A stretch of DNA of 64,000 bases. It comes from a virus. Its lineage: Duplodnaviria; Caudoviricetes. The stretch spans positions 26,840 to 90,839 of IMG/VR virus record IMGVR_UViG_3300032303_002515, one strand, 5' to 3'. The notes below the pieces were generated by a model, which saw only the letters and a program-made list of their open reading frames with translations, made no database searches and had not been told where the DNA came from. Below are positions 1 to 33,542 of this stretch, piece by piece; the stretch's first letter is position 1; each line of letters opens with the position of its first letter. The position numbers and the translations under genes were made by a program.

Positions 1-5
1 AGGCA

Positions 6-3000
6 ATGCGAACCGCAGACGCTATGGCGCGTGCTGCCATGTCGCAAAACCGCACCGGAGCGATGGCATTTAGAAATGCTGGTCGCTCTGGTAGCGGGTC
101 GTTTGGTCGCGGTGGCTCTGGAACTGGGGCCGCAGGAACGCGCGGCGCCCGCTCCTCACTAGACGATTCCGGGGCGGCTGCCCGCTCTATACCCAGCATA
201 GCAAGCATATCAAGGGCCGCGCTTGGCCTGGAGCTGTCTAAGCGCTCTGGCATGCGCAAGGCAGGCATTAGCTCGCGAAACAGACAAAGAGGAACGCCGC
301 TTGCTGCTTCAGATAGAAGCCTAATAGGACTGCCATCTGAGAAGGCATTGGATTACCGCCTGTCTTCGCGCGAGCTAGGTCGATACCTTTCTAGACTTAT
401 TGCATCGGAAACTGGCGACGTTTCATATCCATCTGAGCCGTTAGACCTTAGGAATTTTGCTTTCCGTGGCAATCGCTTTGGTCCGCCAAGGTCAAAACGG
501 AGGTCTGGCCGCTATGGCGCCCAGCAGGCAGACCTAGATCTCTTTGAGAAGGCAATAGAGCGTCAAGACATTTCTCTTCTTGAATCGGCCATTAGGGCTC
601 CGCAAGGCCGCATGAGGGAAGATATTCGGCGTCTTCCAAACTATTTGCAAACATTAATTCAGCAGGCCAGAATGGATCGCCGGCGAAGCAGCAGATTCTT
701 CCCGCAGTCCCAACCTGGCAAGCCAATGTCAGTTCACGTCCCGGGTCGTGGCTTAATGGAGTTTTCTAAGAAGTCAGGCAGGGGCGGCAGCGGCGGCAAC
801 AAAGACATTGACCGAATAGTTGGTCAAATTCTTGGCCAGGGATGGAAATTTGAAAAGCGCAAAGGCGGCCACAATGCCGTCGTTGCTCCTTCTGGTCAAA
901 AGGTATTTTACCCATCATCAGCATCAGACCGCAGGGCATTGCAAAATTTCATTTCCGAGTTGCGAAAAAAAGGTGCAATTGTTGATGGCCGAGGGTACGG
1001 CGGAAAAGAGGGCAAGGGCGGTCCGCGCGAAATGTCACGACGCTCTGGTGGCAGGTCTGTCGCCGAGACTGCATTTGGCTTTGTTCCAGACCGTCGAATC
1101 CTGGAAGCAATGCGCCGTGGTGACATGTCATTTGGCCAAGAGATTGGCGCTCAACGTCTAAACACAAAAAGACTATCCACCACTGTTTCTATGGGGACAG
1201 GAAGAAATCGAGTTCGGGGCACAGCTATTGCCATGTTCCCAGAAAACGACAGGGGGCTCAGGGGCCAATCAGGAAGAGAGGTTGGGAGAAACCTTGGTCA
1301 GGGAGACAGAAAAACTAAAAGAACTAAACTTTCTCCATATAGCCCAATGGCAGAAAAAGTATACGAGGTCCTTGGTGGAATGCTTGGGGCACCAACCCCT
1401 GCAGTTGTCAGGAGAAGGCTAACACCATTAGAGCAGCAACTGGCCACTGGCGGAAGACTGCCGCAAGTTGGCTCTTCGGCTAAGACAAACATTGGCGCAA
1501 CCCGCAGAGTCGCCTCCGGAAGATTTGAAAACCCACAAGTCCGTCAACGCCGGCCACTAAGCCGCAATGCATGGATGATCCCTTGGCTTGACGATTTTGA
1601 GCCAATGAAACGCGTACTTCGCGGTCACCCACAATTTGACGACGAAGTTAGAACGCAAGCAACTAGGCAGCTTGGCTCAACACGAGACATGCGACGCATC
1701 ATGCTCCTTGACCAAATACTTGGCCAGACAGATCGACACGGCTCAAACATGATGGTTGGAAAGGGACGAAGCGGGAAGCGAAGAATTCTTGGAATTGATA
1801 ACGAGCATGCGTTTAGCATGGGCGGCCTTAATAGGCCTATCTCTGACCTTAATAGGCAGCTAAATAATACGCCGCAATTCTCTTCATTCTCTGCGCGATA
1901 TATGCCGCGAGATGTCCCTCAGGGCAGCAGCACATTGCTGCCGTGGATGACAAACAAGGGTGGCTCTGGCCTTGCAAGAATTAAATTAACAAAGCAGGAG
2001 CAAGACGCATCTGCGCGTGAAGCAAAAGTCCTAAGGGGAATCCTTGGCGGCAAGAGGTCAATGAAGATTGTTGAAGAGTCTTTCTTGACTGCTGGCTACT
2101 CCAAGAGGGACACAGATAAGTACATGGAGACTCTGCGCACACGGCTAGAAGCTGCGGCGATTACAAGAGAAGCAGAGGCATCTTCTGGGCATAGCGACGC
2201 CGGAGATTATCGGCAAATGTTGCAAATGTCGCGCCGCTCTGGTGCGCAGAGAAGGCTTGCCGCAAGAACCAGGGCAACTGGGCGCGGGGTTATGCTTCCA
2301 CAAGACCTTCGCAGCGGAGATTTTGCTGAGTTGCCGAGACCGATTCGACTGCTTGGAGAAATGCTGCAAAGCAAAGACAGGGGAAGAAGAGCCCGCCCAA
2401 TAGAAATGGACGATGAAACCAGGGTCTCTTTGGTTTCAGGAAAAGAAATTATTCCTGGACGAGCAAGCAGAGGCTCTAAGCCTTTAATCCCGCAAAACCT
2501 TGCCGGCCGAAGCCCAGAACAAATTTTTGCTGAAGCGCTTGTGGCATCCCACAACGCCGGTGTGCGGGTTCGGGAGATCGCACCAGACCCTGATCGACTC
2601 ATTAAGGCGCAGCTTCGCGCCATGGGCGTTGGGGACCCATATGACGTTGGCGGAAAAAGGATTACTTCACGATCAGATCAAATGGCCGCAGCTCGTGCGT
2701 ATCAATTGCTTAGGCGTCAGCGATTGGGAATGGGCTCAATTGCCTCGCTGGCGCCTGGATCAGTTAACGCAAGCTCATGGTTAATGCAAATGGGCGGAGA
2801 TCAGGGCTCACGTCAGGATCTTCTTGGTGGCGCCCTTGATGAGATGAGTGGCTTTGATGCGTTTAGAGAGTTGAGCGCGGGCACCGCTGGGGCACGAAGG
2901 GATAGAAGAGCTGGTCAAAGCGGGAATCGCCGCATTGGGCTTAAGGGCGGGTTTATCGCCACTGTTCCTAATAGATTCCATGTCCCAGGCATGGGAGACG

Positions 3001-6000
3001 CTGCTGGGTTAAGAAATTTTGTTGTAGGGGCAATGACTCACAGAATGCCAGGAACGCATGAACAGGGCAAGCTTGGCGCCCTAGCCGGTCTTGGGGCTCC
3101 AGGTGTTGGAACTAGCCTTATGGCCCACGAGCTGCGTCGTCACGCGCGGGCAATCATGGAGGCCCGAAGAAGGTACCCGGCCGCCCTTGCCGCAAAATAT
3201 GGCGTATCAGTTGACGATCTTGCCGGACTCAATATGGGCGGTCGCACAGCTGCGGGTCTCAGCTTAAAAGCCAGCAACTCAGGAATGGGCCTGTACGAAG
3301 CGCTTGGATTTGAATTTAGCGATCCAAACAACATGGAAAACCGCTTTATGTCTATGGGCGGAGACAAAGTTGTTGACATGTACGGAAGAATCCGCGCAGA
3401 GATTAAAAGAGTAGAGGCCCGCCTTGCGGAGCAGGGCATTGCGTACAGCCCAATGGAGTTTGCACGTAAGTCTGGTAGCAAATCTTACCCAATGCAAGAA
3501 AAACTTGTTAGAAGGATGGGTCCAGGAGACCCAAATTATCTAGGGCAAACCGCTTTTAGATTAGGCGAAGAAGATTTGCTTGGGCCATTTACGCGCGGAA
3601 CAAGATTCTACCCCCAGAACGAAACGTATGTAGCTGGACCCCGCAAAGGACAGCCAATCCCAAGGCCAGCAGGGCACCGAGGCATTCCGTATTACCAAGT
3701 AGTGACACCTAGCGGCCTGAGAATTGACAATGTGCCGGCTGATGCTCACCGAGGGCGACTGCAAGAAATTATTGCAACTGTAGAAAGCTTCTACAAGAAG
3801 TATCCAGAACAAATGCAAGAGCTTGCTGGCCCAAGAAGTACCGGGATACGGTTTTCATACGCAAAATTGCATGGGGGCGCTACAGGCACGGCATCAATCG
3901 GTTCTGGACCAGTAAATCTAATGGATTATCTACTTACGCCAGATTCAACACACGACAAGACTGGATACTACCACGACTACTACAATTCAAAGAATCCTCG
4001 CTTTGCGGGCAAGGATGGCTTTGCTGGCAGGGCAAATAGCATACACGGCATCTTTGCTCATGAGCTCGGTCACGTAATGGCTGTTGACAAATATCAAGAA
4101 GCAATGAAGCAAAAAGGTATTGGTTTTTACGGTTATAAGCCATATGATGAGTTTGTACACGGAAGCAGAAGAGATGGCATGGGTCGCGGCGTCAGGGGCT
4201 TCCATTATGACTACAAAAAGGGCATGGCGCAGATGGCCGCGCTTGCAAATGTTGAAGAGACTACTGGCGGAAGATTAAAGCCAGAAGATTTCTATTTGCC
4301 TGGCGAAATGGACGGCAAAAGCAACGTGAACGGCGGCGTTTACAGCGGCTTTTTCCATCCTGGCAGTAAGAAACAAAAAACGATGTATGGAAGTAATAAA
4401 TTAGATTTTATGCCGGATGATGCTACCGAGCAAATCCAAATGCGGAAAATTGGCGAAATGATGTTGATGGGAAAGCAAGGACCGCTTGCCAGCGTCCTTC
4501 CAAAGCAATATAAAAATATTGATGAAGCAATGCAGGCATTGTGGAAAATTGGCGGATATGGCTCCATTAGGGGGCGAATGCATGTTGGTTCCGAGTGGAT
4601 GTCCCAAATGTTTGCAAAATGGAGCAGTCGCGCATGGGGGGCGCCAGACGCTGCCCTTGGCGGGCATCCCAATGTAGACGCAAAAAATAAACTTGGCTAT
4701 CGGGTTGCGCGCATTTTGGCAAGAAACAACCAATGGGCTGAATACAGCAAGCGCTCGGGTGGCATCGGCGGGATGCTTGGCGGTCTCTTTGGTAAGGGCA
4801 GGCCAAACATCATGCAGCAGATTACTGGCGGACAAACCTATGGGATGACGCTGCAGGACTTGCTGGGCGGAGACATTACCGGCATGGGCTCGCACAGCAT
4901 CGGCCACTGGTCTGGAGGATCTGGAAAAGAAATCCTCAACCTAAAGACTATGGCTGGAGAAATTAGACAAGTTCTTGCACAGCCGATTGGTGGGGATGCA
5001 TCGCAAGGTGGTCGATTTCCAAACAAGGCAATGGAGATCCTTGCTGGACTTCTTGGGGTGGAGACCCCGACAATTCTGGAGCGCAGCATTGGCGGCAGGA
5101 GAATGGCGATTCAGCCAATGGCTCCAGGAGAAACCGCAATTGACTTTATTAACAGATTAAGTGCTCCGCCATCAACACGAGTTCCAGTATGGGAAGACGA
5201 CCAGATCATCGGTCACTTCTCTCGGCCACTTGGTTCTGGATCAGTCGACCCAGCATTGGCACAGCAGCCCTGGCTTGCAAGCAGGGGCGGAAGGCGCATG
5301 CAGATCCTTGATCATCTTGCGCAGACATACGACCGACACGGACTTAACTACCTTCTCAATTTAGTTGACCCCAAGGGCGGCGTAGGCTCGCCTGGAAATT
5401 ATCGCGTTACTGCTATTGACCACGATCTTGCCCTTCGCCCACCAGGCAAGGGCGGAAGAAGAGTCATTGGTGGTGGCGCTGGGCCAATTGGTGTTCCCGG
5501 ACAGTTCCAAGAACACCAGATAAAACTTGCAAGGGAAGAAGCCGCTACCCTTGCGGGCATTGTAACGCGGCGCAAAGTTATAGAGCCGCAATTGCTTGAA
5601 GCATTGCGAGCAGGAGGATATAGTGAGCAAGAAGCACTCGCAACAGTCGATGCTATCTTCAGACGCGCACGTGAAGCGTTTAGGAGTCGCATGGCTGAAT
5701 CGCGGGGCGCAGCCCACCCGTCTGGGTGGGAACTCTCACGAAGGTCAGGAGGTGTCGGTATGAACGGCCTGACAAACCCCTTTGCCCAATACAGCAAGCG
5801 CAGCGGTGGAGCTGCTACTGGCACCCCATACACATCCCTGCAGACCGCCTTTGAGCAGGTAACTCTTACCGCCATCAAGAACCTGAAGGTATCTCTTGCT
5901 GGCCAAAAGATGAACCCACAGCTATTCCGCAGAAGCATTGAGTCCTTCCAGAAGACTATTCTTGACGCAGCTACGGGCCAGGGAGAGTTTGCTGGCGGTT

Positions 6001-9000
6001 CAATGCAGAAGGCGTTGAAGGGCATTGCGCCAAAAGCGCGCAAGTCCCTGATGGGCATGTTCAGCGGCATCTTGAAGGACATTGAAGACACTGGCACTGC
6101 TGCATTTGGCCGTGGCGACCTGAAAGGCATTCCTCTTCGCAAGGTGCTGTTCAGCATGCTTGGTCAAGTCCCTTCGGTCTATGCGCCAGACATTGCGCAA
6201 ATTGCCGCAAATCCAGCGTTGCAAAAGAAGAGACCAAGCGGACAAAGAGACAGAATCCCAAGCATTCGCACAATCCAATATGGCGAATCTAACCTTGCAA
6301 CCCTTGGCGGCGTTGGCATTGCCCCAGGCATGAGGCTTGCTGGATCGGCAACACTTGCCTCCCACTTGACTGACCAAGGCTATGATCCAAAGGCTTACGG
6401 CAATCTTGCCGGAATTCTGACCGACATGGCACAGAAATACTTCCCGTCCGGCATCAGAGGCGGCGGGCTATCGTTTGGTCACCCCCTAGCTAATGCAGGT
6501 GCATGGGCATACTACGAGCCACAGCGCCCAGGATATAACGTACAAAACCCTGGCCAAATTACTATGGACCTTGGCGGAGCGGGTAAGGGCGGCGTTGTAA
6601 CTATTGGCAAGGCCATGGCAACAATGGCTCACGAAATCACGCACGCCATGGTAGACGCTTCCGAGATGGAAATAGCAAAGCTTTCAGTTGGCGTAACTGA
6701 TCAAACGCAACTGCAAAAGATTCGCAAGGAAGTTGAGGCAAGACGAGGAGTTCCGTCAGCAGACAAATACCGTGCCTACTCGGGAATTTCCGGGGAATAC
6801 ATGTTTGTTCCAAAGGGCAAGCAGATTGGCGCAAAAACCATTCCGCTGGGAACCCCAGATAATCCAGAAGGTTTTAGCTATTTTGATTTGCCGAAAGGAT
6901 CAATTACAGAAAGTGAATACAAAAAGCTTAATCCGAAGGCCAGGGCGGCATACGAAAAGGCCTATGTCACTGCGGCACAAGCTGCAGCCATAGATCCAAA
7001 TGCACAGGGTCAGCATATTAATGTTCCTGGGCACTTTGGCCCGCAGGTTCGTATTCTTGAAGATGCGCAGGCAGGACTTGCCGAGTATGCGCAGATGCTT
7101 GCTGCTTCAACAAGAGTATTGCAGCCAGGAGAAACGCAGAAAAGCTTGATGCTCTCAACCCGGCAAATGAATGCCGGCGCTCGTGCAAACGCAACGGATA
7201 TTGGTGCGGTCATGCCTGGCGTTGCCGGAATTGCCAATCCGTATCAAGGCGGATTGCTTAAAGCAATGGATCTCTCGGAAACTCTTGGCGGGAAACTTCG
7301 TCCAATTGCGGAATTTGCCGCGCGCATTCAGAGAAACATGGCCGGTCAGATGGTGTCTGCTCAGGCAGCAGGTGGTCTTGACGCTCGTGACCTTGGTGGA
7401 ATGTTTGCAAAGGCTCTTGGCACGGCTATTGAGGCTACGCCAAAGACACAGCGCGCAAGCGTTCTTGAAGCCATTAGGCCAGACCGCATTCTTGATGCCG
7501 CAGTAGTTCTTGACTCTATTGGAAGAGCAAAGAATATTCCGGCTTTGACAAGAATGCTTGCGAATGCAACTGGCGCCACTGGCGCCGCGATTGTCTCTCA
7601 TGGCGTTGTTGCTTCGGACCTTAATACCGCAGGGGATGTTCAAGCTGTTGCAGAGGCAATGGGCAAGAAGCGTGGGAAGAAGCCTGCTGAGCCACCACAG
7701 CCAGCTGGCCCAGTCCAGCCAAGCCCGCAGGTTGCAGCCATTGCGCCAAAGGGCTATGACTTGTTAACGCAATTAACAGAGATTCTTTCACTTGGTGTGG
7801 TTGGCGGCGGCAAAGAAAATATTACCTTGCGCAATCAAGTAAGGGCTCAGGCCGGTCTCCCAAATAGGCCGCTGGCGGGAACGCAACTTGCTGCAAGTAG
7901 CCTAACAGGCTCAGCAATTGCCGCACTCGCCGCACAGTATCCAGAGCTTTTGCCATTTGTTCGCGAGTACAGACCGGATCATCCGCTTCTTGGCGCGCAA
8001 CCAGGAACAAAAGTTCCAGCAACAAAGCGCGGACGTCGCGGCGGACCAGTGGGGCCAACTGTCTCCGGGTCAACAGGCGTACAGCCATATGCCGACACAG
8101 CAAGCAACGATTATTACCAAAATATTGCAGATAGCATCTTTGCTTCACGCGTTGAGGACGCATTTAAGATGTTTGGCGGTTCCGGTGGATTTGGCTATAA
8201 CGCACGTGGTCTTGGAAACCGCATGAACGTTTTGCGAGATGTTATGCCAGAAGATCAACTACAGGGCGGAATTGACAAGCTAAAGCAATTTGGCTCAACC
8301 ATGAAAGATGCCTTCCTGAATTCAAAGCCAGTCGTTGGGTTGTTGCAAGACTTTGACGATGCAATGCTCAGGGCTGCGGACGGATCGCTGGACTTTAGCA
8401 AATCACTTGATGCGGCAACCGCGAGTAGCGGTGGGTTGGTAAATCAACTGAAAGAAACGGTAAAACTTGCCGTTGCATTCGTTCTTACACAAAACGCAGC
8501 TAATGCTATTTACCGATCTATTAGCCACCTTTCTTCAGGCTTTATTCAGTTCAACCAAGCGCTTGAAGACGCCAAGGTAGGTTTCTCAACACTGTTCTAC
8601 AACGCAGGCGATTCTATGGGCGTTGCCGAGGGTCGCGCAACCGGAATGATTGAACGTTTGAAGGAATTTGCTAACGTCACGCCGTTTTACTTCACGCAGC
8701 TGCAAGAAGCAGCTGTCCGAATGCAAGCGTTTGGCCTTGACATTGGGCAAGTTCTGCAAAGAGACCCAAATACGGGCGAGCTTGTTGGTTACATTAAAAA
8801 CATTGGAGACGCGGTTGCCGCACTTGGCGGTGGCGACGAAAAGATCATGCGCATTACGTATGCGCTTGGTCAGATGAACTCTGCTGGTCGCGTATATCAA
8901 AACGACATGATGCAGCTGGCAAACGCCGGTATTGCTGGATACGAAATCCTTGCTGAAGCTCTTATTAATGAGCTTGAAGCAAAAGGCAAGGATATGACTA

Positions 9001-12000
9001 ACGATGATAAGAAAATTCTTAATGATTTGTACACAAATCGCGTAGAGGCAATTAGAAAACTTACAACTTCGGGAAGAATCTCTGGTAAGGCCTCAGCCGC
9101 TGCAATTCTTTCTGGGCTTGGCGAAAAATACGGCGGCGGAATGGAGCGGCTGTCAAAGACAATGACTGGTGCGCTAAGCACAGTCTCAGACATGTCTCAG
9201 TCACTTGTAGCAACAATGACTGGACCGCTTTATAACGCAATACGAGACCTTGTTGTTCAATTTGCCGGAGTTCTACAAGATCCAAAAACAAGCGCAATGT
9301 TTGTCGAAATGGGCCAAAAGTTGCACGGATTTGCTGCAACAATTAAAGAAGCGATTCCTGCAACAATAGCAACGATTGTTAATGCATTTACGTACCTTGG
9401 TGGAATTATTGCCAAGGTATTTGGCGGATCCGGAACAAAGAGCGCTATAGATCTACTAAGATCTGGTTTGCAAACTGTTGGAGATTTGCTGTCTAATAAC
9501 GTAGTGCGAGCGGCGTTGCTTGCAAGCGTTGCGCTAAAAGCAATGATGTCAGTTGTTTCTGCAAACCCGCTGGTTGCAACAGTTGGCGTTGTTCTTGCCG
9601 CACTTGGCGCGCTACGCCAAGCGTACGAAACAAATTTCCTTGGTTTTGCTGATACCGTTGACAACGCAATGGCTCCATTGCAAAAAATGGGTCCAGATAT
9701 TGCCGAATCTATCATTCCTGCATTAAAAGAACTTATTGCAGCCGCAGCCCAAGTAATTGGTGGCGGATTAGTCATAGCCCTAAAAGCAGCCCTTCCAATC
9801 ATCTCAGCATTGGCTGGTGCGCTAGGCGGAATGGCCGGAATTCTTGAAAAACTAGCTCCGCTTATTGGCGCATTTATGGGTGCATGGATTGTTAAAAAGG
9901 TTGCCATTGAAGGTATGGCTATCTTGTTTACTAAACTGCAAAACGCAGCAGCCTCTGCAGCGATGTCTGCTGGAGTTGCTGGCGTCAAGATGGGTGCATG
10001 GGGGAAGCAGGGCGCCTCATATTATTCTCAAAGAATTCCAGTACGGCAAACAGAAGTTCAAACACCATTTGGCCCAATGAACGTCTGGCAGTCTGCCGCG
10101 CCAGAGCAAGGCGCGGGAGCGGTAATGGGATCTGCGCCCGGGGTAAAAATTGGCGACGCAGAAAAAGCAAGAGGCGTTATGCCTCAGCCATTCCAAAAGG
10201 TATATACAGTACCAGAACATTTAAGAAACATTCCGCTTCCATACTACACAAACCCAGGAGTTTTGTCTCCAGAAACTGGTGGCCTTCTTGGTCTTGACCC
10301 AGAATCTGGAACGGCCATTGGCGCAAGACCTGAGAACATGGTGCTGCGCACCAGGACTCTTGGCGAGCTTGCGGCTATGCAGGGTGGCGGACTTCAGCCA
10401 GAGCAAATAGTTCATGCCCAAAGAGCGGCAAAAGCGCTTACCGGCCTGCAGCAAGCAGACCTTGTAACAATGGATGAAAGCGGAACAATTACCGCAACCG
10501 AAAAGGGCAAAAAGCTTTTGCGCGACAAGATGGAAAATGCGCGAGCACGGCGAGCATTGGAAAACGATATTTCAGTTCAAGAGCAAATAAAAAGAGATCA
10601 GGAAGAAGTTGCAAGAATCAAGCAAGCCAACAAAGAAGGCAAAAAGGTTATTGGCTATGTCCCTCGCGGAATTCCTGACTATGCCAGAACACCAGCACAG
10701 CTTTCCCCAACAGAAGAAGTGCAAATGCTTCAGGGAATGCGAAGTCAAACATTTGGACAAGCGTTTGATTACAACTACACGGAAGAACTTGCCAAGAGGC
10801 ATGCACAAGCCAGAGCGGCTGGAAGATTTAGAACCGGTCTTGATGGATCAGAAATAACAAACATTGGGCTTACTGGAAGATTGCGAGCGCGCGGTTCGGC
10901 AACTATTCAGACAATAAAAGACATGTTTGCCATGGGCGGCAAAACAGAAATGGCTGGAAACGTTGCCGATAAATTTAGCGGTCTTACAATGGCAGCAAGC
11001 GGTCTAATGATGGGTTTTGAAGCCCTTGGATCAGCCGTAGGAATTAATACAAAAGACCTTCAAACGTTCTCAATGGTGCTAATGGGCTTGTCCATTGTCT
11101 CCAAAGCTGTTGCTGCTGCTATGGCAGCAATTAGTGCGGCGGGTGGGGTAAAGCAAGCCCTTAGCGGTTTAGTGAGTTCAATTGGTGGCCCTGTTGGGGC
11201 CGCAATTGCAGCAGCTATGGCTGCGGCAATATTTGTTTTTAGTGAAGTTTCTAAGCACGATGCGGAAGCTCAAAAGTATCGCGATCAGAGAAAAGCGGAC
11301 AAGGATCGAGAGCGAGCAATCAAACTTGGCTGGAGCGACAGCGGTCTTGGGTATATGGCTCCAAAGGTAATTGGCGGACAGGCTCAATACGATTTGTACG
11401 GTTTCTCAAATGGAAAAACCCTTGGTGGAAATGTTGACCAAGCAAAAATTGATGAAATGGTTTCTCAGGGGCTATTTAAGAAAGAAACAACAGCCCTTCC
11501 AGGAAAGTTTACATATACGCCAACCGAGGCGGGAAGGGCCGCTGGATACATTAGCGCAAGGGGCGTAACTCAGGCGGTTGTTCCAACTTTTACAAAGGCA
11601 CCAACTGCCGTTGTCCAAAGGGTGGACAATCTTATGACCAGCTCTACTGGCGGTTTACTTGAAGCACCCCCAGCGGAAAGAATGGGCCAAACAAATGCAG
11701 ATCAGTTGCAAACCCTAGCAAGCCTTGGGGTTGTAAGCGAAGATTTTGTCACGCAACTTGTAAAAGATATTAGGGCTGAGGACAATAGGGGTTTTAATGC
11801 CATGATTCCACTTGTTGGAATGGCATGGAGAAACCCAAGCGATGTCCTTACGCAACGATATGGTTCGTCGTATACAAACGCTATTGACAACAATATGGGT
11901 GTTAATACGCTAAATCCAGAAAAACTGCTAGGTAATCTCCTTTCTTCAAATAATGTTGGCAGAGCAATTCTTGATTCTACTGGTCTTGGCAAATATTCAT

Positions 12001-15000
12001 TCACGGGAACTTATGCAAAAGAAGGCGTTCCAAACGAGGCAATATTCTCTACTTCTGAATCGTTAAAACTTCTTAATGATAGTTTAGATGACGCAAGCAA
12101 AGCACTAGATGAAGCTAAGAAAAAACTTGCCAAGCTATTTGATCCATTTGCTACCGCTTTTGATCAACTTATGGGCAGGGCAAAAGAGCTTTTGCAAAAA
12201 GAATTTGACCTTGAACAGCAACAGCTTAATGCAGAAATGCAAGACGCTTTGTATAACGTTGATGCGCTATACAACGGCGAAACTATGCGTCTTGGAGTTC
12301 TTGAAGAGCAATATGGATTGCTGCAAGAACAGCGAGCGGAGCAAGAAAAGCTTAACGCTCTTAATGACGCGCAGGAAAATGCTGCACGGGCAACGCTTGG
12401 TTTGTTTGACGCTCAGCAAGACCCGATTCAAGCTGCGATTGCAGCTCGCGAAGCTGCTCAAAAATTGCAAAAAGAAGAACAAAACTATCAGATGCAACAA
12501 ATGGCCGAGGCTATCGACCAGGCAAAAAATAGTGTTCAATATCAGCAAACAACAACGTATTACGATGAAAAGAAAGCTACGCTTACCGCTGACCAGCAGG
12601 AGCGATCTCGCCGCCTAGAGGAACGCGCGCAGCAACTCCTTAAGGACATCCAAGAGGGAAAGATTACTGTTCAAGCAGCGCAAGAAGAGTTTATGGCAAT
12701 GTTTGGCGATGCTGGCTTGCCACTCGACTCAATTCTTGAAACTGGTCAGTTCCAAGGTCAAGCACTTGCGGATATTATGGGCACTGCATTTGCTACAAGG
12801 TTCCAAGAGCTTGGCGACATTATTTCTACCACAATGGCAGACGTTGTTAAGGCTGGTATTGCGGCGGCGGCAGCAGAAGCAAACGTTGACGCTATCGTAG
12901 AGCAGATTGACAAAATTGAAAACAAGAAAGACAAGATTAAAAAGAAAGACGTTGAGGCTGAGCGAGAAAGATTAAAGCAAGTCCTTAACACTTCTCGCGC
13001 ATCACTCCTTGAATACGCAACAAGAAAAGATGTTATTGGGACAGATGCATCGACCAAGGCTATTGGCGCTGCAAACAGCATGGAAAAATACATTCAAGAT
13101 TTGCAGGCAATGGATTTTTCAAAATATGGAGATTTCCTTACCCGTGCTCAATTCGGCACAGAGTTTGATGCTATTTATAAACTATTTGATAGCGTTTACA
13201 GCGAATTTGGTGCACTGCAAACAGTTGCTCTTACTTTGACCGACAGCTTTGACAGAAATCCAACATCGCCTGTTATTCGACCCAGAAAGCCAAAGCCAAC
13301 ATCTCCACCAGCTGGATATACCAACGACACAGGAGCCTGGTACGAAAGGGGCGATAATTGGGTTTGGTATGACCTTATGGGCAACGCAATTACCTCTGTG
13401 CCAGCGCGCGCAAAGGGCGGACCAGTTGGTGCTGGCCAGTATCTCGTCGGGGAGCGTGGGCCAGAAATGCTCACCATGTTCCCAGACGGTGGTGGCTATG
13501 TCACGCCAAACCACGAGCTTCCAAGTAGCGTTCAATCCTCTGCTGGCGCACTTAAGGCGGGCAAGCAGGGACGATACTACGGCGGCCTGGTTGGTGTAAC
13601 TGGTCGAGCTGACGGCGGCTACGTCGGTATAAATCGAGACCCCTGGAACTATGACGCCCCATCAGAAAGCTTCACAAGAAGCCTGGGCTTCATTGGCGAC
13701 CCTATGGGCTTCCAGCAGCACTCGTTCAACGATTTTATGAATAGCCAGATCAACACAAAGACTCAGAAGAATGAACTAGCTCGTAGGTTCCCAAAGCTAT
13801 ACGCTCGCTATGTAGCAGGCAATATTCGCAGTAACGGGCCAAGGGGTTGGAGCCCAGTCAGGGGTCGAGCCGATGGCGGATATCTTGGGGGATGGGATTC
13901 TTGGGATAGGCCACAGCCAACCGAGACGCCAATTCCGGACACAACGGGTGGCCACGGAATAGATAGCTGGGGCGCGCCAATCGCAGACGAAAATCTTGTT
14001 AAGGGCATCCCCTCGGGAAGGGTTCATTTCCTCGGCGACCTAGACCCTATTCAAAAAATTTGGAACAAACTTGGCCCAAACAGTGGGAAGGTTGGCGGAA
14101 GCGGAAATAAAATTCGTTTTGACTGGGGCGACGTAATTATCTCAGATGATTACGCAAGGACCGGTCAGACGGTTGACCTAGCAGCCCTATCGGAAGCTGC
14201 AAGGTTAAGCCTTGCCGCAGCGCCGGAAAACATGTTTGACCCAAGCGATAGAACAAAAAGAGTCACAATCGTTGTTGTGCCAGATTTAGGGGATGGGGTA
14301 GTGGGTCGAGTAAAATACCCGACCGGACCAAGAAAAAACCACATTTACCTTAGCCCTCAGGGGACCAGCTCTCAGGGTCAATCATGGGATTTTAACAAGC
14401 GAGGAGATGCCAACACTAGCGGGTATTTAGAAACAATTGCCCACGAAACCGGCCATTTAGTTCATTCAAGAAAACACGGGACGCCGCTACTCAGGGGGCG
14501 AGGAATCTTTTCTCCGCTTGTTAGCTTGTTGAGCCTTGGAACACAGGGCGGCATAGGCTTGCCTATGGGAATCATAGAGAGAGTTGAAAAGAAAAATCCA
14601 ACCCTAGCGTTAGCGCTGGCAAAGATGTTCCGACTTCCCGGGCTTGCGGTAAATACTCAGGGCCGGCTTGCTGACCTGAATAGGGACGCTTTTGTGCGGT
14701 CGGCGGCGGACCAAGGCAGAGATGTTCTAAATTGGGCAGAGTTTTCTGGAAAGAGTCCTGCTGTAAGTTTCTATGGAATGGGTTCGCCAGCAGAAAATTA
14801 CGCAGATTCATTTAAGTATCACGTATTGGATCAAGCTCCGGGGAGGCATGGGGAAACCCTTGGGGAATCCCTTCTTGGTTCCGAGCCCCGCCTGGACGAA
14901 CCAAGATTCAAGTCTGGAACCGGATGGGATCAGGTTCAAATAAATGACCCAGAAGCACAATATAAAAAAGATTTGCTGGAATGGAGAAAAAGAAGAGCCG

Positions 15001-15941
15001 TTGCCGGAACTTCTAAAATCTTAGCAGTAAGAGAGGGATGGCAAAACATTCACGACAGCATAAACAGAAAGTCAACTTTCTCCGTTGACGGAAAAGACGC
15101 TGCGTATAGGGATGTGGCTGGCGGACAGCGGCCCGATTCCTTTACGCCAACCTATAGGTCTAGCTCGGGATCTAGCGCAATAGGCGCTGGGTTGCAAGTT
15201 TTTGACAAAAATATGAACACAAAGAAAGGCAACGTCATTGCTTCTATTGCTGCTGATATTGGCCAAATGGCAGCATCTGGCCAGTGGGATTTTGGCAGAC
15301 TTATCTTTAACAGAATCTTTGATTTGCTTGGCGCGATACCAATAATTGGCGGCAAGCTTTCGATGATTGCTGGTCTTGCTACAACGCTACTTAGCGGTGG
15401 CGACGTTGGCCGAGCCGGAGTCGGCATGATTGGCTCTTTGCTTGGCGAATTCCTTGGGTCCATGGCGCTTGCCCCAATTGGCATGCCGTGGCTTGGCGGA
15501 TTTGTAGGCAGCATGATTGGCGGCTTCTTGGCTGACGCGATTTATACTAATATTATAAATCCAGCTGCAGCCTCAAAGCCAAACGTAATGGTTGGCGGCG
15601 GCAAATATGGTGTATATAACCCTGGTCCGAACATGCCGTTTGCACCAGGGCGGGCTTTTGGTGGGTCAATTGGCAAGAACATGCCATACCTTGTTGGTGA
15701 GCGTGGGCCAGAGCTCATGATCCCTGACAGCAGTGGCTACATGTTGCCAAATACTGGCTTGCGGGCGTTGCAGGCTCCAGGGGACTTGCGAATGGCTGGC
15801 GGAGGCGCGACAATCAATGCGTCCGTCACCATTAACAACCCTGTTGTGTCGGATGCCGCAGATATTGATAAACTTGCCGAGAAGGTAAGTTCGGCACAGG
15901 TACGCACCCTCCGTGCGGCAGGCTTCATGAGGCCAAGTTGA
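6..15941 (+). CDS. Giant tape measure protein with N- and C-terminal enzymatic modules (5,311 aa; possibly 5'-truncated by window edge)
   Basis: TMP N-terminal-type motif (FNQALEDAKVGF...LKEFANVTPF...IGDAVAALGGG...YALGQMNSAGRV...QLANAGI) at ~8.54-9.25 kb; Ala/Gly-rich amphipathic and coiled-coil core to ~13.2 kb; typical TMP C-terminal RAxGG...LVGERGPE motifs; lies directly upstream of tail-tip genes. The frame is open upstream of the ATG at 6. Confidence 0.9.
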   Translation: MRTADAMARAAMSQNRTGAMAFRNAGRSGSGSFGRGGSGTGAAGTRGARSSLDDSGAAARSIPSIASISRAALGLELSKRSGMRKAGISSRNRQRGTPLAASDRSLIGLPSEKALDYRLSSRELGRYLSRLIASETGDVSYPSEPLDLRNFAFRGNRFGPPRSKRRSGRYGAQQADLDLFEKAIERQDISLLESAIRAPQGRMREDIRRLPNYLQTLIQQARMDRRRSSRFFPQSQPGKPMSVHVPGRGLMEFSKKSGRGGSGGNKDIDRIVGQILGQGWKFEKRKGGHNAVVAPSGQKVFYPSSASDRRALQNFISELRKKGAIVDGRGYGGKEGKGGPREMSRRSGGRSVAETAFGFVPDRRILEAMRRGDMSFGQEIGAQRLNTKRLSTTVSMGTGRNRVRGTAIAMFPENDRGLRGQSGREVGRNLGQGDRKTKRTKLSPYSPMAEKVYEVLGGMLGAPTPAVVRRRLTPLEQQLATGGRLPQVGSSAKTNIGATRRVASGRFENPQVRQRRPLSRNAWMIPWLDDFEPMKRVLRGHPQFDDEVRTQATRQLGSTRDMRRIMLLDQILGQTDRHGSNMMVGKGRSGKRRILGIDNEHAFSMGGLNRPISDLNRQLNNTPQFSSFSARYMPRDVPQGSSTLLPWMTNKGGSGLARIKLTKQEQDASAREAKVLRGILGGKRSMKIVEESFLTAGYSKRDTDKYMETLRTRLEAAAITREAEASSGHSDAGDYRQMLQMSRRSGAQRRLAARTRATGRGVMLPQDLRSGDFAELPRPIRLLGEMLQSKDRGRRARPIEMDDETRVSLVSGKEIIPGRASRGSKPLIPQNLAGRSPEQIFAEALVASHNAGVRVREIAPDPDRLIKAQLRAMGVGDPYDVGGKRITSRSDQMAAARAYQLLRRQRLGMGSIASLAPGSVNASSWLMQMGGDQGSRQDLLGGALDEMSGFDAFRELSAGTAGARRDRRAGQSGNRRIGLKGGFIATVPNRFHVPGMGDAAGLRNFVVGAMTHRMPGTHEQGKLGALAGLGAPGVGTSLMAHELRRHARAIMEARRRYPAALAAKYGVSVDDLAGLNMGGRTAAGLSLKASNSGMGLYEALGFEFSDPNNMENRFMSMGGDKVVDMYGRIRAEIKRVEARLAEQGIAYSPMEFARKSGSKSYPMQEKLVRRMGPGDPNYLGQTAFRLGEEDLLGPFTRGTRFYPQNETYVAGPRKGQPIPRPAGHRGIPYYQVVTPSGLRIDNVPADAHRGRLQEIIATVESFYKKYPEQMQELAGPRSTGIRFSYAKLHGGATGTASIGSGPVNLMDYLLTPDSTHDKTGYYHDYYNSKNPRFAGKDGFAGRANSIHGIFAHELGHVMAVDKYQEAMKQKGIGFYGYKPYDEFVHGSRRDGMGRGVRGFHYDYKKGMAQMAALANVEETTGGRLKPEDFYLPGEMDGKSNVNGGVYSGFFHPGSKKQKTMYGSNKLDFMPDDATEQIQMRKIGEMMLMGKQGPLASVLPKQYKNIDEAMQALWKIGGYGSIRGRMHVGSEWMSQMFAKWSSRAWGAPDAALGGHPNVDAKNKLGYRVARILARNNQWAEYSKRSGGIGGMLGGLFGKGRPNIMQQITGGQTYGMTLQDLLGGDITGMGSHSIGHWSGGSGKEILNLKTMAGEIRQVLAQPIGGDASQGGRFPNKAMEILAGLLGVETPTILERSIGGRRMAIQPMAPGETAIDFINRLSAPPSTRVPVWEDDQIIGHFSRPLGSGSVDPALAQQPWLASRGGRRMQILDHLAQTYDRHGLNYLLNLVDPKGGVGSPGNYRVTAIDHDLALRPPGKGGRRVIGGGAGPIGVPGQFQEHQIKLAREEAATLAGIVTRRKVIEPQLLEALRAGGYSEQEALATVDAIFRRAREAFRSRMAESRGAAHPSGWELSRRSGGVGMNGLTNPFAQYSKRSGGAATGTPYTSLQTAFEQVTLTAIKNLKVSLAGQKMNPQLFRRSIESFQKTILDAATGQGEFAGGSMQKALKGIAPKARKSLMGMFSGILKDIEDTGTAAFGRGDLKGIPLRKVLFSMLGQVPSVYAPDIAQIAANPALQKKRPSGQRDRIPSIRTIQYGESNLATLGGVGIAPGMRLAGSATLASHLTDQGYDPKAYGNLAGILTDMAQKYFPSGIRGGGLSFGHPLANAGAWAYYEPQRPGYNVQNPGQITMDLGGAGKGGVVTIGKAMATMAHEITHAMVDASEMEIAKLSVGVTDQTQLQKIRKEVEARRGVPSADKYRAYSGISGEYMFVPKGKQIGAKTIPLGTPDNPEGFSYFDLPKGSITESEYKKLNPKARAAYEKAYVTAAQAAAIDPNAQGQHINVPGHFGPQVRILEDAQAGLAEYAQMLAASTRVLQPGETQKSLMLSTRQMNAGARANATDIGAVMPGVAGIANPYQGGLLKAMDLSETLGGKLRPIAEFAARIQRNMAGQMVSAQAAGGLDARDLGGMFAKALGTAIEATPKTQRASVLEAIRPDRILDAAVVLDSIGRAKNIPALTRMLANATGATGAAIVSHGVVASDLNTAGDVQAVAEAMGKKRGKKPAEPPQPAGPVQPSPQVAAIAPKGYDLLTQLTEILSLGVVGGGKENITLRNQVRAQAGLPNRPLAGTQLAASSLTGSAIAALAAQYPELLPFVREYRPDHPLLGAQPGTKVPATKRGRRGGPVGPTVSGSTGVQPYADTASNDYYQNIADSIFASRVEDAFKMFGGSGGFGYNARGLGNRMNVLRDVMPEDQLQGGIDKLKQFGSTMKDAFLNSKPVVGLLQDFDDAMLRAADGSLDFSKSLDAATASSGGLVNQLKETVKLAVAFVLTQNAANAIYRSISHLSSGFIQFNQALEDAKVGFSTLFYNAGDSMGVAEGRATGMIERLKEFANVTPFYFTQLQEAAVRMQAFGLDIGQVLQRDPNTGELVGYIKNIGDAVAALGGGDEKIMRITYALGQMNSAGRVYQNDMMQLANAGIAGYEILAEALINELEAKGKDMTNDDKKILNDLYTNRVEAIRKLTTSGRISGKASAAAILSGLGEKYGGGMERLSKTMTGALSTVSDMSQSLVATMTGPLYNAIRDLVVQFAGVLQDPKTSAMFVEMGQKLHGFAATIKEAIPATIATIVNAFTYLGGIIAKVFGGSGTKSAIDLLRSGLQTVGDLLSNNVVRAALLASVALKAMMSVVSANPLVATVGVVLAALGALRQAYETNFLGFADTVDNAMAPLQKMGPDIAESIIPALKELIAAAAQVIGGGLVIALKAALPIISALAGALGGMAGILEKLAPLIGAFMGAWIVKKVAIEGMAILFTKLQNAAASAAMSAGVAGVKMGAWGKQGASYYSQRIPVRQTEVQTPFGPMNVWQSAAPEQGAGAVMGSAPGVKIGDAEKARGVMPQPFQKVYTVPEHLRNIPLPYYTNPGVLSPETGGLLGLDPESGTAIGARPENMVLRTRTLGELAAMQGGGLQPEQIVHAQRAAKALTGLQQADLVTMDESGTITATEKGKKLLRDKMENARARRALENDISVQEQIKRDQEEVARIKQANKEGKKVIGYVPRGIPDYARTPAQLSPTEEVQMLQGMRSQTFGQAFDYNYTEELAKRHAQARAAGRFRTGLDGSEITNIGLTGRLRARGSATIQTIKDMFAMGGKTEMAGNVADKFSGLTMAASGLMMGFEALGSAVGINTKDLQTFSMVLMGLSIVSKAVAAAMAAISAAGGVKQALSGLVSSIGGPVGAAIAAAMAAAIFVFSEVSKHDAEAQKYRDQRKADKDRERAIKLGWSDSGLGYMAPKVIGGQAQYDLYGFSNGKTLGGNVDQAKIDEMVSQGLFKKETTALPGKFTYTPTEAGRAAGYISARGVTQAVVPTFTKAPTAVVQRVDNLMTSSTGGLLEAPPAERMGQTNADQLQTLASLGVVSEDFVTQLVKDIRAEDNRGFNAMIPLVGMAWRNPSDVLTQRYGSSYTNAIDNNMGVNTLNPEKLLGNLLSSNNVGRAILDSTGLGKYSFTGTYAKEGVPNEAIFSTSESLKLLNDSLDDASKALDEAKKKLAKLFDPFATAFDQLMGRAKELLQKEFDLEQQQLNAEMQDALYNVDALYNGETMRLGVLEEQYGLLQEQRAEQEKLNALNDAQENAARATLGLFDAQQDPIQAAIAAREAAQKLQKEEQNYQMQQMAEAIDQAKNSVQYQQTTTYYDEKKATLTADQQERSRRLEERAQQLLKDIQEGKITVQAAQEEFMAMFGDAGLPLDSILETGQFQGQALADIMGTAFATRFQELGDIISTTMADVVKAGIAAAAAEANVDAIVEQIDKIENKKDKIKKKDVEAERERLKQVLNTSRASLLEYATRKDVIGTDASTKAIGAANSMEKYIQDLQAMDFSKYGDFLTRAQFGTEFDAIYKLFDSVYSEFGALQTVALTLTDSFDRNPTSPVIRPRKPKPTSPPAGYTNDTGAWYERGDNWVWYDLMGNAITSVPARAKGGPVGAGQYLVGERGPEMLTMFPDGGGYVTPNHELPSSVQSSAGALKAGKQGRYYGGLVGVTGRADGGYVGINRDPWNYDAPSESFTRSLGFIGDPMGFQQHSFNDFMNSQINTKTQKNELARRFPKLYARYVAGNIRSNGPRGWSPVRGRADGGYLGGWDSWDRPQPTETPIPDTTGGHGIDSWGAPIADENLVKGIPSGRVHFLGDLDPIQKIWNKLGPNSGKVGGSGNKIRFDWGDVIISDDYARTGQTVDLAALSEAARLSLAAAPENMFDPSDRTKRVTIVVVPDLGDGVVGRVKYPTGPRKNHIYLSPQGTSSQGQSWDFNKRGDANTSGYLETIAHETGHLVHSRKHGTPLLRGRGIFSPLVSLLSLGTQGGIGLPMGIIERVEKKNPTLALALAKMFRLPGLAVNTQGRLADLNRDAFVRSAADQGRDVLNWAEFSGKSPAVSFYGMGSPAENYADSFKYHVLDQAPGRHGETLGESLLGSEPRLDEPRFKSGTGWDQVQINDPEAQYKKDLLEWRKRRAVAGTSKILAVREGWQNIHDSINRKSTFSVDGKDAAYRDVAGGQRPDSFTPTYRSSSGSSAIGAGLQVFDKNMNTKKGNVIASIAADIGQMAASGQWDFGRLIFNRIFDLLGAIPIIGGKLSMIAGLATTLLSGGDVGRAGVGMIGSLLGEFLGSMALAPIGMPWLGGFVGSMIGGFLADAIYTNIINPAAASKPNVMVGGGKYGVYNPGPNMPFAPGRAFGGSIGKNMPYLVGERGPELMIPDSSGYMLPNTGLRALQAPGDLRMAGGGATINASVTINNPVVSDAADIDKLAEKVSSAQVRTLRAAGFMRPS
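780..1028 (+). other. HicA-like RNase domain inside TMP
   Basis: DIDRIVGQILGQGWKFEKRKGGHNAVVAPSGQKVFYPSSASDRRALQNFISELRKKG matches the HicA pattern (GW..R..G.H, V..P...SD.RA..N...L...G); His at 870-872. Confidence 0.7.
1050..2222 (+). other. HipA/PI3K-PI4K-like kinase domain 1 inside TMP
   Basis: AEKVYEVLGGMLGAPTP; LLDQILGQTDRHGSNMMV (DRH 1731-1739); IDNEHAF (1794-1814). Confidence 0.75.
2244..3455 (+). other. GNAT acetyltransferase-like module inside TMP
   Basis: Acetyl-CoA loop GVGTSLM (3102-3122) and motif B LSLKASNSGMGLYEALGF (LYEALGF 3291-3311). Confidence 0.6.
3477..4739 (+). other. Zincin metallopeptidase module 1 inside TMP
   Basis: IFAHELGHVM (HELGH 4059-4073), downstream SEWMSQMF as possible third-ligand helix. 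Confidence 0.6.
4761..5729 (+). other. HipA/PI3K-PI4K-like kinase domain 2 inside TMP
   Basis: NKAMEILAGLLGVETP; ILDHLAQTYDRHGLNYLL (DRH 5331-5339); IDHDLAL (from 5415); C-terminal helices resemble kinase 1. Confidence 0.75.
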
Positions 15942-24376: not shown

Positions 24377-24377
24377 T

Positions 24378-27300: not shown

Positions 27301-27749
27301 CTGCTGGCTGGCGACTTACTGGCGTGCAAGCAGTGGGAACTGTTGCGGCATATTGGAGCGCCAACGCAACAACTGCGTATCTTGGCCGCCTAAGCTCTTC
27401 GCGTAGGTATAAAGAGAATATTTCTTATACCGATTTTGACATTGAGGACATTGTAAAGTTGCGCCCAGCAAACTTCACAGTCAAAGAAGAATTTAGAGCC
27501 AACATAGAAGACGAAGACGGTAATCCAACTGGCGAAAAGGAACCGGCAAAAACCAAACTGGGTATTATTGCAGAAGATGGCGAAGATAATCCTGCTTGGG
27601 AAGATCTTGTTATCAAAAACGAAGATGGTCAAACAGATTCATGGGCCTACCAGCACATGGGCGTTGTGCTCCTTTCGGCAGTGCGCACTCTTTACGCCCA
27701 AAACAAGGCGTTAGAGGCCCGAATCGCAGAACTAGAGGCGCGTGAATAA
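24378..27749 (+). CDS. Tail fibre/receptor-binding protein with C-terminal intramolecular chaperone (peptidase S74-like)
   Basis: Beta-rich Gly/Thr/Ser body; C-terminal SSRRYKENI...LRP...LGIIAED...LLSAVRTLYAQNKALEARIAELE. Confidence 0.85.
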   Translation: MVMQRISGKKKRTVFRSDPVSSAGQSVSGLSIDGPNITIVNPAPTQDSSGKVVSAGTPILSVGVNEATINASYIKTGVLDANLMRTGQIQTIASWNSRSYGSDLDAIEAQQGFTGGYVYLQDWSTVSENTVYAEFAPWGTYESGTTTATVGASTMFSVGDYVRVTGAYFGDPDQLTRSVGFNANVGIIDQQDGPLGYGEIVAVDTVGTGVTYTVTSTSKSTLDSGLVAKSQQYIPTMSKANQILSIDAQRISGPNPAGIYSVFVTTSMPHDFVVGDYIELASCGPVYSGVWYVVSTPSNNTFVFRHRFNLDFGAVISSESLPSIDAPVAIRVRKAYSVTSNGDLTSASLNIRTAKTQDGGEPVFQVLNDSIVIRKPDGSILLGVTAGGSFIDIGTVTADEVIVGGDINANQVVRAGNYPNAISPTFQGIWAGNATPASAEFSVDLDGNLVASNANITGTVRASSGQIGGFTIGATALTATNIVANSSGYVSVGSGNNVAVMSGADANYRFWAGNSNAATANFVVDKAGNITARSFSLTGIGSISAINAITVSDVLGAGVVTNAKIATVSADKIQTNTLTLSGLSAAAITSTNFVVTNTGSVTASDITLSNSDSVTVGASQVGSINVKPQPVGSTNVGGALFTVWSNAKQNSAVNTVSYSSFNISTITGGTTVGATWTVTTTTAHDIGVGQYVSFTGLSGGTGLSAWSQVCTQNGAVRVTASSSSTTFQFKSPYAFAAPTTSQPKVYGYKTLTLVAPGGVFIADAINSTLSPGMIGVGSIALGSNFESIGGDSATSGIDGTPKPADGEIVFTSATTNPIYDGGGNLYSSDGATTINTSGAFTAGSHITGDRLYANGYLYTYHGGLYLRGGTVNPTIYFRNSANTDLGNITHNGTYLQVSDRMDVAGALNSSSTGNFSGLITATGGVTANGVTLNGTYDLNAYGSGSSIYINQTAGIYFTDTSKNVQSNLYYVTGSAAGWRLTGVQAVGTVAAYWSANATTAYLGRLSSSRRYKENISYTDFDIEDIVKLRPANFTVKEEFRANIEDEDGNPTGEKEPAKTKLGIIAEDGEDNPAWEDLVIKNEDGQTDSWAYQHMGVVLLSAVRTLYAQNKALEARIAELEARE

Positions 27750-27811
27750 ATAACAACCTCCAGGTAAAATACTGTAAGCCCAAGAGAGGGCAATTCAGTA
27801 TGGAGGTTCTT

Positions 27812-28549: not shown

Positions 28550-28563
28550 TTAGGAGGTTCATT

Positions 28564-28944: not shown

Positions 28945-28995
28945 TGTGGTATACTTGCCTCACGGCAAAAAGCCGCAAGTACAAGGAGGCCAGTA

Positions 28996-29205: not shown

Positions 29206-29228
29206 CGCCAACTAGGACGGCTGATACG

Positions 29229-29260
29229 GAGAGCGCCCCGCATGTGCGGGGCGTTTCTCT
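29229..29260. terminator. Bidirectional intrinsic terminator
   Basis: CGCCCCGCA-TG-TGCGGGGCG hairpin followed by TTTCTCT, between convergent operons. Confidence 0.75.
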
Positions 29261-29464: not shown

Positions 29465-29478
29465 ACGGCGATTATACA

Positions 29479-31396: not shown

Positions 31397-31437
31397 GCGC
31401 CCTCCATCTCCTTGGTGACGCATTGATTATCTCAAAT

Positions 31438-31466: not shown

Positions 31467-31491
31467 CTACGAAAAAAAGATTATGTTTGTA

Positions 31492-33533: not shown

Positions 33534-33542
33534 AAGCCTATC

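Follow-up and report, generated by a model that had tools for sequence, protein, structure and literature searches.

Polyvalent proteins are multi-enzyme, virion-associated proteins of phages and conjugative elements, and for those that are injected a zincin-mediated processing, as well as a cassette-like recombination of their domains, has been proposed (Iyer et al. 2017, PMC5512222). Cleavage is also on record for the tape measure proteins (TMPs) of phages lambda and T5, which are cut in the virion and the fragments of which are ejected: lambda gpH gives rise to gpH* and gpHC, and T5 pb2 to pb2* and pb2C (PMC12617516). These are the only TMPs for which cleavage in the virion has been shown, and for the lambda protein both the cleavage site and the protease are still unknown (PMC12617516). 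A third point of reference is the contractile injection system (CIS) of Streptomyces davawensis, outlined as loading a TMP-related protein as an effector (PMC11126660).

Here we describe the TMP gene that opens a 64,000-nt stretch of DNA (hereafter the window; bases 26840-90839 of a 90.8-kb virus contig, IMG/VR record IMGVR_UViG_3300032303_002515). The encoded protein carries, between a conserved N-terminal anchor and the TMP proper, a fast-evolving array of disparate modules that are separated by eight copies of a short dibasic motif. This motif is real, is conserved as protein, is specific to the array and marks module boundaries in evolution; it may also be the site at which the array is processed into a set of delivered enzymes. 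Nucleotide positions below are those of the window unless the contig or a locus is named, and residues are numbered according to the full-length protein, P0002.

A dibasic motif separates the modules of the tape measure protein

A regular expression applied to the translated open reading frame (ORF) retrieved exactly eight strict copies of [EQ][LFMY][SA][KR][KR]SG, at nt 231, 759, 1029, 2223, 3456, 4740, 5730 and 5787 (aa 200, 376, 466, 864, 1275, 1703, 2033 and 2052), as well as a degenerate SKRRSG at nt 492-509, the RRSG of which is kept in all relatives. All of these positions agree with those given in an initial annotation of this DNA, and so does its claim that the motif is missing from the remaining ~3,400 aa: not a single strict copy was found in the other 3,379 residues of the TMP, nor in the 124 residues encoded upstream of the window, nor in any other ORF of at least 150 aa in the whole contig. 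A six-frame scan recovered the five-residue core [SA][KR][KR]SG only three times elsewhere in the window, always in other frames or ORFs. Such a concentration is far from what composition would produce, with eight strict copies observed in the protein against 0.002 expected; among 20,000 shuffles of the first 2,060 residues, even the five-residue core reached four copies only once. Likewise, the relaxed 5-mer occurs four times in the 64,002 residues of all other open frames versus eight times in the ~1,860-residue array.

The codons vary among the eight copies, and the motif is therefore conserved as protein rather than as DNA. Comparison of six relatives is consistent with this: 13 motif codons changed only synonymously versus 6 that changed the residue, in each case within the allowed class, the corresponding numbers for the motif flanks being 19 and 20. 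Every module of the array ends with a hydrophobic and a small residue followed by [KR][KR]-Ser-Gly, after which comes a variable linker rich in Gly and Ser, and the motif sits at a short, fixed distance past the last predicted helix of each module. The modules that precede the motif copies share no detectable similarity with one another, except for two kinase-like modules, and all of them are strongly basic, with net charges from +7 to +31.

The window opens inside this very long ORF, the true start of which was placed 366 nt upstream by means of a 100%-identical database protein of 5,435 aa. We identify the ORF as the TMP of an uncultured siphovirus, as had been proposed in the initial annotation, because the TMP_3 core (Pfam PF20155; nt ~8619-9218) scores above the cut-off (43.3 bits versus 41, E 4.5e-11), five TMP PHROGs match the ORF, and its position is the one expected in a siphovirus, behind the tail tube and a pair of small chaperone ORFs and ahead of large distal tail proteins. 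The C-terminal TMP signature [RFY]AxGG...GE(R)GPE is present too, as RAKGG...YLVGERGPE at aa 4592 and RAFGG...YLVGERGPE at aa 5340. P0002 has a three-part layout, comprising a conserved N-terminal anchor of ~190 aa, the fast-evolving array and the TMP proper. The view that the array forms the N-terminus of the protein has accordingly been abandoned: since the ORF begins 366 nt ahead of the window and a conserved segment of ~190 aa, without further motif copies, precedes the array, the latter is internal and not an N-terminal extension. The features of the gene are as follows, all motif copies having been located with the regular expression.

1..15941, + strand: TMP gene, 5'-truncated in the window (full gene at contig 26473-42780, locus L005; 5,435 aa, P0002)
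1..230, + strand: second part of the anchor (module C, P0002 aa 1-204), 63-68% identical to sister-clade TMPs with different arrays
231..251, + strand: motif copy 1, ELSKRSG
246..773, + strand: module D, 176 aa, net charge +17, no function assigned; degenerate SKRRSG inside at 492-509
759..779, + strand: motif copy 2, EFSKKSG
774..1043, + strand: module E, 90 aa, small alpha-beta3-alpha domain, HicA-like at best (phrog_2089, weak Foldseek match)
1029..1049, + strand: motif copy 3, EMSRRSG
1044..2237, + strand: module F, 398 aa, kinase-like, with a DRHxxN...IDNEH catalytic-loop pattern (PI3_PI4_kinase match)
2223..2243, + strand: motif copy 4, QMSRRSG
2238..3470, + strand: module A, 411 aa, predicted GNAT-fold core in the C-terminal two thirds (BLASTP, VIA-align, Foldseek)
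3456..3476, + strand: motif copy 5, EFARKSG
3471..4754, + strand: module G, 428 aa, with HExxH (HELGH), three ~40%-identical alleles (sliding identity, alignments)
4740..4760, + strand: motif copy 6, EYSKRSG
4755..5744, + strand: module H, 330 aa, second kinase-like module, DRHGLN...IDHD (25% identity to module F)
5730..5750, + strand: motif copy 7, ELSRRSG
5745..5801, + strand: unit I, conserved 19-residue spacer between motif copies 7 and 8
5787..5807, + strand: motif copy 8, QYSKRSG, the final boundary (cross-clade conservation resumes directly after it)
5802..15938, + strand: TMP proper (module B), 3,379 aa, with HEI[TE]H at 6630-6644, the TMP_3 core at ~8619-9218 and a duplicated C-terminal signature

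The array is replaced and one of its modules is exchanged among relatives

Five further members of the same clade, 67-95% identical to P0002, were found (P0003-P0005; loci L001-L004, L009, L010 and L041), all of which keep every motif site, with substitutions confined to the residue classes of the motif. A search with the region following the array retrieved 24 more giant TMPs. Among them, the members of a sister clade (P0007-P0014; loci L007, L008 and L013-L016) are 63-68% identical to P0002 over the first 186 residues (in BLASTP, query 1-186 matches subject 1-179 of P0008-P0013) and ~40% identical from aa 2093 onward. Between the anchor and the TMP proper, the sole similarity to the sister clade is that of module A (aa 869-1279), which is 27-31% identical to the repeated modules of the sister proteins. 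In the joint alignment of the two clades, invariant columns resume at aa 2059-2060, directly past motif 8. When the motif-delimited segments were clustered, the order was C-D-E-F-A-G-H-I-B in the clade of P0002 versus C-A-A-(A)-A-B in the sister clade. These comparisons support the conclusion that the array, its limits coinciding with motifs 1 and 8, has been replaced between the conserved anchor and the TMP proper.

The sister clade possesses a related motif, its array modules ending in [VI]x[FY][AND][KR][KR][GS]xL, with three to five copies, found only in the array (for example VKFAKKGML, IRFAKRGKL, VRFAKRSSL and QYARRGSL). Common to both clades is thus a grammar of an aromatic or large hydrophobic residue, a small one, two basic ones and then Ser or Gly. 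No dibasic motif of this kind was found in the more distant clades (P0015-P0030; L021-L032); in one of these, Tyr-Ala-Gly-Gly-Gly precedes the copy of module E, and two of the distant TMPs, P0015 and P0016, have an N-terminus similar to the anchor. The precomputed Pfam annotation of P0015, a 3,600-aa TMP, places PF18763 next to TMP_3. If PF18763 is indeed a ParB-like domain first defined in polyvalent proteins, it would directly link TMPs to the published set of polyvalent-protein domains.

Exchange of a single module is seen within the clade of P0002. TMPs that match each other at 90-100% identity on either side of module G (aa 1282-1700) share only ~40% within it (sliding identity, L001 versus the window), and the alleles of this module fall into three groups (window, P0003 and L004; L001, P0004 and L003; L010). 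Divergence sets in immediately past motif 5, where the linkers differ by up to ~25 residues, and the alleles reconverge ~25 residues before motif 6. In the alignment of the array, 3 of 34 indels begin within two residues after a motif, compared with ~0.4 expected by our own estimate. The sister clade has three or four tandem GNAT-like paralogues, and its copy number differs by exactly one module of ~350 aa; this indel is in register, with breakpoints inside the repeat rather than at the motif, and looks like the product of unequal crossing-over within the repeat.

The initial annotation had read each motif copy as the edge of a domain. In the evolutionary sense this is borne out by the HExxH alleles that swap between motifs 5 and 6, by the array limits at motifs 1 and 8 and by the related motif of the sister clade, and the comparisons support the view that the motif behaves as a module boundary. 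The conservation among homologs that the same annotation had called for was found in both clades, strictly in the one and as a variant in the other. Its more specific expectation, that modules are gained or lost exactly at the motif, was not borne out by the one-module indel of the sister clade, which breaks inside the repeat.

Predicted functions of the modules

At the sequence level, the array modules are orphans. When aa 864-2060 were compared by phmmer with 1.84 billion representative proteins, matches were confined to the clade itself, a phmmer search of the PDB with the N-terminal 2,800 aa gave nothing relevant, Pfam searches with single modules at E values up to 5 detected the kinase loop of module F only, and an ESM Atlas feature search with module A returned no usable match. 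AlphaFold2 models of aa 190-1290 and 1270-2420 have a mean predicted local distance difference test score (pLDDT) of 40.3 and 34.0, respectively; values of 55-77 are confined to the small domain of module E, a portion of the GNAT core and a helical bundle after motif 8 (predicted from aa ~2059).

The enzyme names proposed in the initial annotation fared unevenly. That of module A stood at the level of the predicted fold: in a model that is of low confidence in the GNAT region (pLDDT 40-77), VIA-align matched 7byy with Z 8.9 (150 aa, root-mean-square deviation 3.6), AtaT (6gtp) with Z 8.4 and TacT3 with Z 7.5, GNATs making up most of the top 50, and the top match of Foldseek was AtaT again (6ajm_B, probability 0.97, E 0.065). 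Module A has no Pfam match; the structural comparisons support a GNAT fold that is nearest to the tRNA-acetylating toxins.

The kinase identity of module F is borderline. It matched PI3_PI4_kinase (PF00454) with 29.3 bits as part of a long fragment and with 24.7 bits alone, the cut-off being 27.1, and the match covers only the catalytic loop (profile positions 131-173, 43 of 241). Module H, without any Pfam match of its own, is 25% identical to module F over 164 residues (E 5e-6) and displays the same DRHxxN...D pattern.

Module E is predicted to form an alpha-beta3-alpha domain (pLDDT 56-67) and matches phrog_2089, and its likeness to HicA is weak: the Foldseek match to HicA 6g26_F ranks 33rd (probability 0.89, TM 0.57, E 0.71), Pfam gave no match, and a PDB profile search with seven homologues of the module, in which G-G/K-H is invariant, did not retrieve HicA. 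It is the array module most widely shared with other TMP clades, and the only one that recurs in several of them (L021, L022, L025, L026, L028, L030, L031 and L036). Its place in these distant TMPs is invariably among the first ~350 residues, with G-H, D-x-R and N invariant and with no flanking dibasic motif.

As for module G, the label of zincin derives from its HExxH, which is kept in all three alleles; Pfam does not match this module. Taken together, a kinase-like loop, a predicted GNAT fold and three HExxH sites place two or more disparate enzyme-like domains in the single polypeptide of a virion gene.

A putative processing site

The motif reads like a protease recognition site, with a hydrophobic residue at P4, a small one at P3, two basic residues at P2-P1 and Ser or Gly at P1'. 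The precursor would be cut at the motif into separate proteins; the array modules would be carried in the tail with the TMP as cargo and would enter the host before the DNA does, there to modify host targets, and the anchor and the TMP proper would supply the assembly and ejection functions. In the initial annotation, embedding in the precursor was also supposed to hold the effectors inactive until assembly is over. The cargo would consist of two small units into which the degenerate site splits module D, a HicA-like domain, two kinase-like modules, a GNAT acyltransferase, the HExxH module and the 19-residue spacer. We infer cleavage because unrelated modules, in two clades, are all followed by a peptide in which four or five positions are specified, because the allowed substitutions (F/Y/L/M; S/A/N; K/R; S/G) resemble a protease subsite pattern, because variable linkers follow the site, and because tandem sites flank the 19-residue spacer at the junction between the array and the TMP. 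We put the chances at about even for processing at the motif combined with delivery of the modules as cargo. A fuller picture is put forward more tentatively, as having somewhat less than an even prospect: the tail would act as a multi-effector injection device, in which cutting of a ~580-kDa precursor at a dibasic code particular to the clade, perhaps by the precursor's own HEIxH peptidase, frees a changeable set of takeover or anti-defence enzymes (a GNAT resembling tRNA-acetylating toxins, kinases, an RNase-like domain and a peptidase) ahead of the DNA.

Several proteases were considered as the cutting enzyme. Three HExxH sites are found in P0002, and the HEI[TE]H site in the TMP proper (HEITH, aa 2333) appears to be the best internal candidate, because it is the only one conserved in both motif-bearing clades; the sister clade lacks module G as well as the C-terminal insert that bears the third site. 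A host protease is another possible cutter, as is the stand-alone S8 subtilase encoded by the phage. The latter (335 aa, nt 38744-39748, minus strand) is proteinase-K/aqualysin-like (best PDB match E 5.7e-46), has a hydrophobic, signal-like N-terminus and is encoded by a gene convergent with that of the terminase large subunit (37317-38741). It is conserved in both the clade of P0002 and the sister clade, being present in all four of the sufficiently complete motif-bearing genomes (G000, G001, G002 and G013), and it is absent from the more distant complete genomes. As a motif-specific protease it was rejected: it does not specifically co-vary with the motif, since it is equally present in seven related phages with motif-less TMPs. 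The prohead protease was rejected as the processing enzyme too, no dibasic site having been found in its own gene product (an S78 fusion), in the major capsid protein (MCP), in the portal or in any other long ORF.

A number of points weigh against processing and delivery. Cleavage, its timing, the protease, packaging in the tail lumen and delivery are all deduced. No protease was found that co-varies with the motif: the S8 enzyme has, in addition, a signal-like N-terminus, the usual substrates of the prohead protease are devoid of such a site, and HEIxH-like sites also occur in motif-less TMPs (P0015-P0017). Folded domains of 40-45 kDa, in several copies, would be hard to fit in the lumen of a tail tube, and cutting every site would detach the conserved N-terminal anchor from the ruler. 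The enzyme assignments, apart from that of the GNAT, are weak. The AlphaFold2 models, with their mean pLDDT of 40 and 34, are of too low a quality to place the motifs outside folded domains; in them, 7 of the 10 modelled motif positions are in coil and 3 are in low-confidence helices (motifs 4 and 6, plus motif 5 in the second model). Finally, the motif-bearing clades are few and closely related, and conservation among them carries limited weight.

Two of the alternatives remain serious rivals. According to the first, the motif would be an uncleaved structural joint, a basic cap that docks onto the tail tube's acidic lumen, the tail assembly chaperones or neighbouring TMP chains, the chain staying intact and the modules acting, or simply travelling, as parts of it. 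The short, fixed distance between the last predicted helix and the motif and the strongly basic character of all modules would suit such a joint, and only in an uncut chain does the conserved anchor stay tethered to the ruler; moreover, the N4 virion RNA polymerase (vRNAP) and ArdC-type polyvalent proteins are transferred unprocessed (PMC5512222). A hinge, however, does not need four or five specified residues to be kept across unrelated modules and two clades, and tandem sites around a 19-residue spacer are hard to explain as docking. We regard an uncleaved joint as rather unlikely.

According to the second, which we consider improbable, the array would be cut off before or during tail assembly, and the TMP gene would be no more than a vehicle by which late cytoplasmic enzymes are expressed in a fixed ratio with the tail. 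This would remove the problem of folded domains in the tube lumen, and lambda gpH is indeed cut after tail assembly and before head joining (PMC12617516). On the other hand, the conservation of the anchor ahead of the array is understandable only if the entire chain participates in assembly, enzymes resembling GNAT toxins and kinases would suit early takeover better than late functions, and the fast turnover of alleles in the HExxH module suggests contact with host targets.

It is more improbable still, in our estimation, that the motif is a functionless remnant of module duplication or insertion by recombination. In the sister clade the modules are all paralogues, with which the motif could have been inherited, and there the copy number changes by unequal crossing-over inside a module rather than at the motif. 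In the clade of P0002, by contrast, the motif follows modules without detectable mutual similarity and is more conserved than its flanks, and because the codons differ between copies there is no DNA homology that would drive recombination at the motif. A last proposal, that the motif Ser is a phospho-acceptor through which the two embedded kinase-like modules would autoregulate the array, accords with the common preference of kinases for basic residues upstream of Ser, but is so weakened by the sister clade, which has a related motif without any kinase-like module and in most copies carries Gly in place of Ser, that we give it hardly any credence.

The C-terminus of the tape measure protein and the neighbouring genes

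The RAxGG...GERGPE signature at the C-terminus of module B is duplicated, with an insert that contains the third HExxH between the two copies. This region (13400-15940, plus strand; aa ~4590-5435) holds extra RA/YxGG copies at aa 4647, 4658 and 4745. Between the two signatures, the larger part of the sequence (aa 4734-5327, including HETGH at aa 4937) has no match in the sister clade and a partial match in P0015 and P0017. The C-terminus of the TMP looks like a second insertion site with a joint motif of its own.

Upstream of the TMP, the genes are ordered as portal, S78 protease fusion, SU10-type MCP, head-tail adaptor, gp10-like, gp17-like, a 246-aa ORF, and ORFs of 99 and 73 aa; downstream there are ORFs of 2,812 and 1,123 aa and no sheath gene, and relatives share this gene order. 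The prohead protease (L006:4648-6666, plus strand; contig 17647-19665, upstream of the window) is a 672-aa fusion of Peptidase_S78 (aa 48-171), a Tudor-like Hva1 domain (191-254) and a ferritin/Dps-like domain (286-423). This S78-Tudor-ferritin fusion was also called in the contig of one relative. Attached to the prohead protease, a Dps-like cargo would end up inside the capsid. A 427-aa exonuclease-like gene (L006:10132-11415, minus strand; contig 23131-24414; phrog_284, E 3e-43) lies antisense amid the head-tail structural genes, a location that is kept in relatives (minus-strand ORFs of 432 and 430 aa in L007 and L008).

The two large ORFs that follow the TMP (from 15938-27749, plus strand) have zero Pfam matches. 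Further downstream, two minus-strand ORFs of 632 and 762 aa (31635-35831) contain Phage_fiber_2 repeats, and the contig also encodes one ORF with collagen repeats and two thioredoxin-like ORFs. A distant-mode blastn search of the GenBank phage collection with nt 1-6000 gave no match, and a scan of GTDB genomes for prophage relatives confirmed no locus; no host was inferred.

Comparison with known systems

Should the array indeed be processed at the motif and its modules be delivered, long-tailed phages would have in their tail lumen a protein-delivery compartment, besides a ruler and a DNA channel, and a short dibasic peptide would be a readable code for dividing a giant virion protein into injected enzymes. 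The array would constitute a tail-borne counterpart to head-packaged ejection proteins and polyvalent proteins, and would account for the length of some TMPs, which greatly exceeds what a ruler could plausibly require. Searching TMPs for short linkers that recur would then offer a handle for new host-takeover and anti-defence enzymes. The finding also bears on how and why TMPs are cleaved.

The initial annotation had noted that no TMP with a modular, cleavable effector array was known, and our literature searches likewise found no description of a TMP polyprotein or a TMP effector array. The CIS of S. davawensis is similar in that a tape-measure-related protein is the delivered effector of a tail-like tube; as outlined in that report, it is set apart by its description as a single CIS effector rather than a multi-module array in a phage TMP (PMC11126660).

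The TMPs of lambda and T5, as well as TMPs that bear peptidoglycan hydrolase domains, resemble the present protein in residing in the tail lumen and in being ejected before the DNA. Unlike it, they have at most one enzymatic domain, and the lambda and T5 proteins are cut once, near the C-terminus, whereas here eight or nine repeated sites in the N-terminal third fence seven or eight modules.

With respect to the motif itself, the sites cut in viral polyproteins and in proproteins offer an analogy: flavivirus NS2B-NS3 sites consist of [KR]R followed by G, S or A, and kexin/furin sites of K/R-R. As in those systems, two basic residues and a small one would be repeated at the domain junctions of a precursor. 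The likeness is one of mechanism only, as no homologous protease is tied to the motif and the S8 enzyme of the phage is proteinase-K-like rather than kexin-like and looks exported.

The nearest published concept is that of the polyvalent proteins, for which processing of multi-enzyme phage proteins by peptidases of the zincin-like type has already been put forward (PMC5512222). In both cases disparate domains (kinase, GNAT and zincin-like peptidase) are combined in one polypeptide that is encoded among virion genes and predicted to enter the host with the DNA. None of the published polyvalent domain families was detected here by Pfam, except for PF18763 in the distant relative P0015. The published examples differ in being fused to MuF, portal, primase or vRNAP modules and in being delivered from the head or by a type IV secretion system, and the study in question says nothing of tape measure proteins, nor of a conserved peptide between domains (PMC5512222). 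The architecture described here is possibly that of a polyvalent, and perhaps processed, virion protein built into a tape measure.

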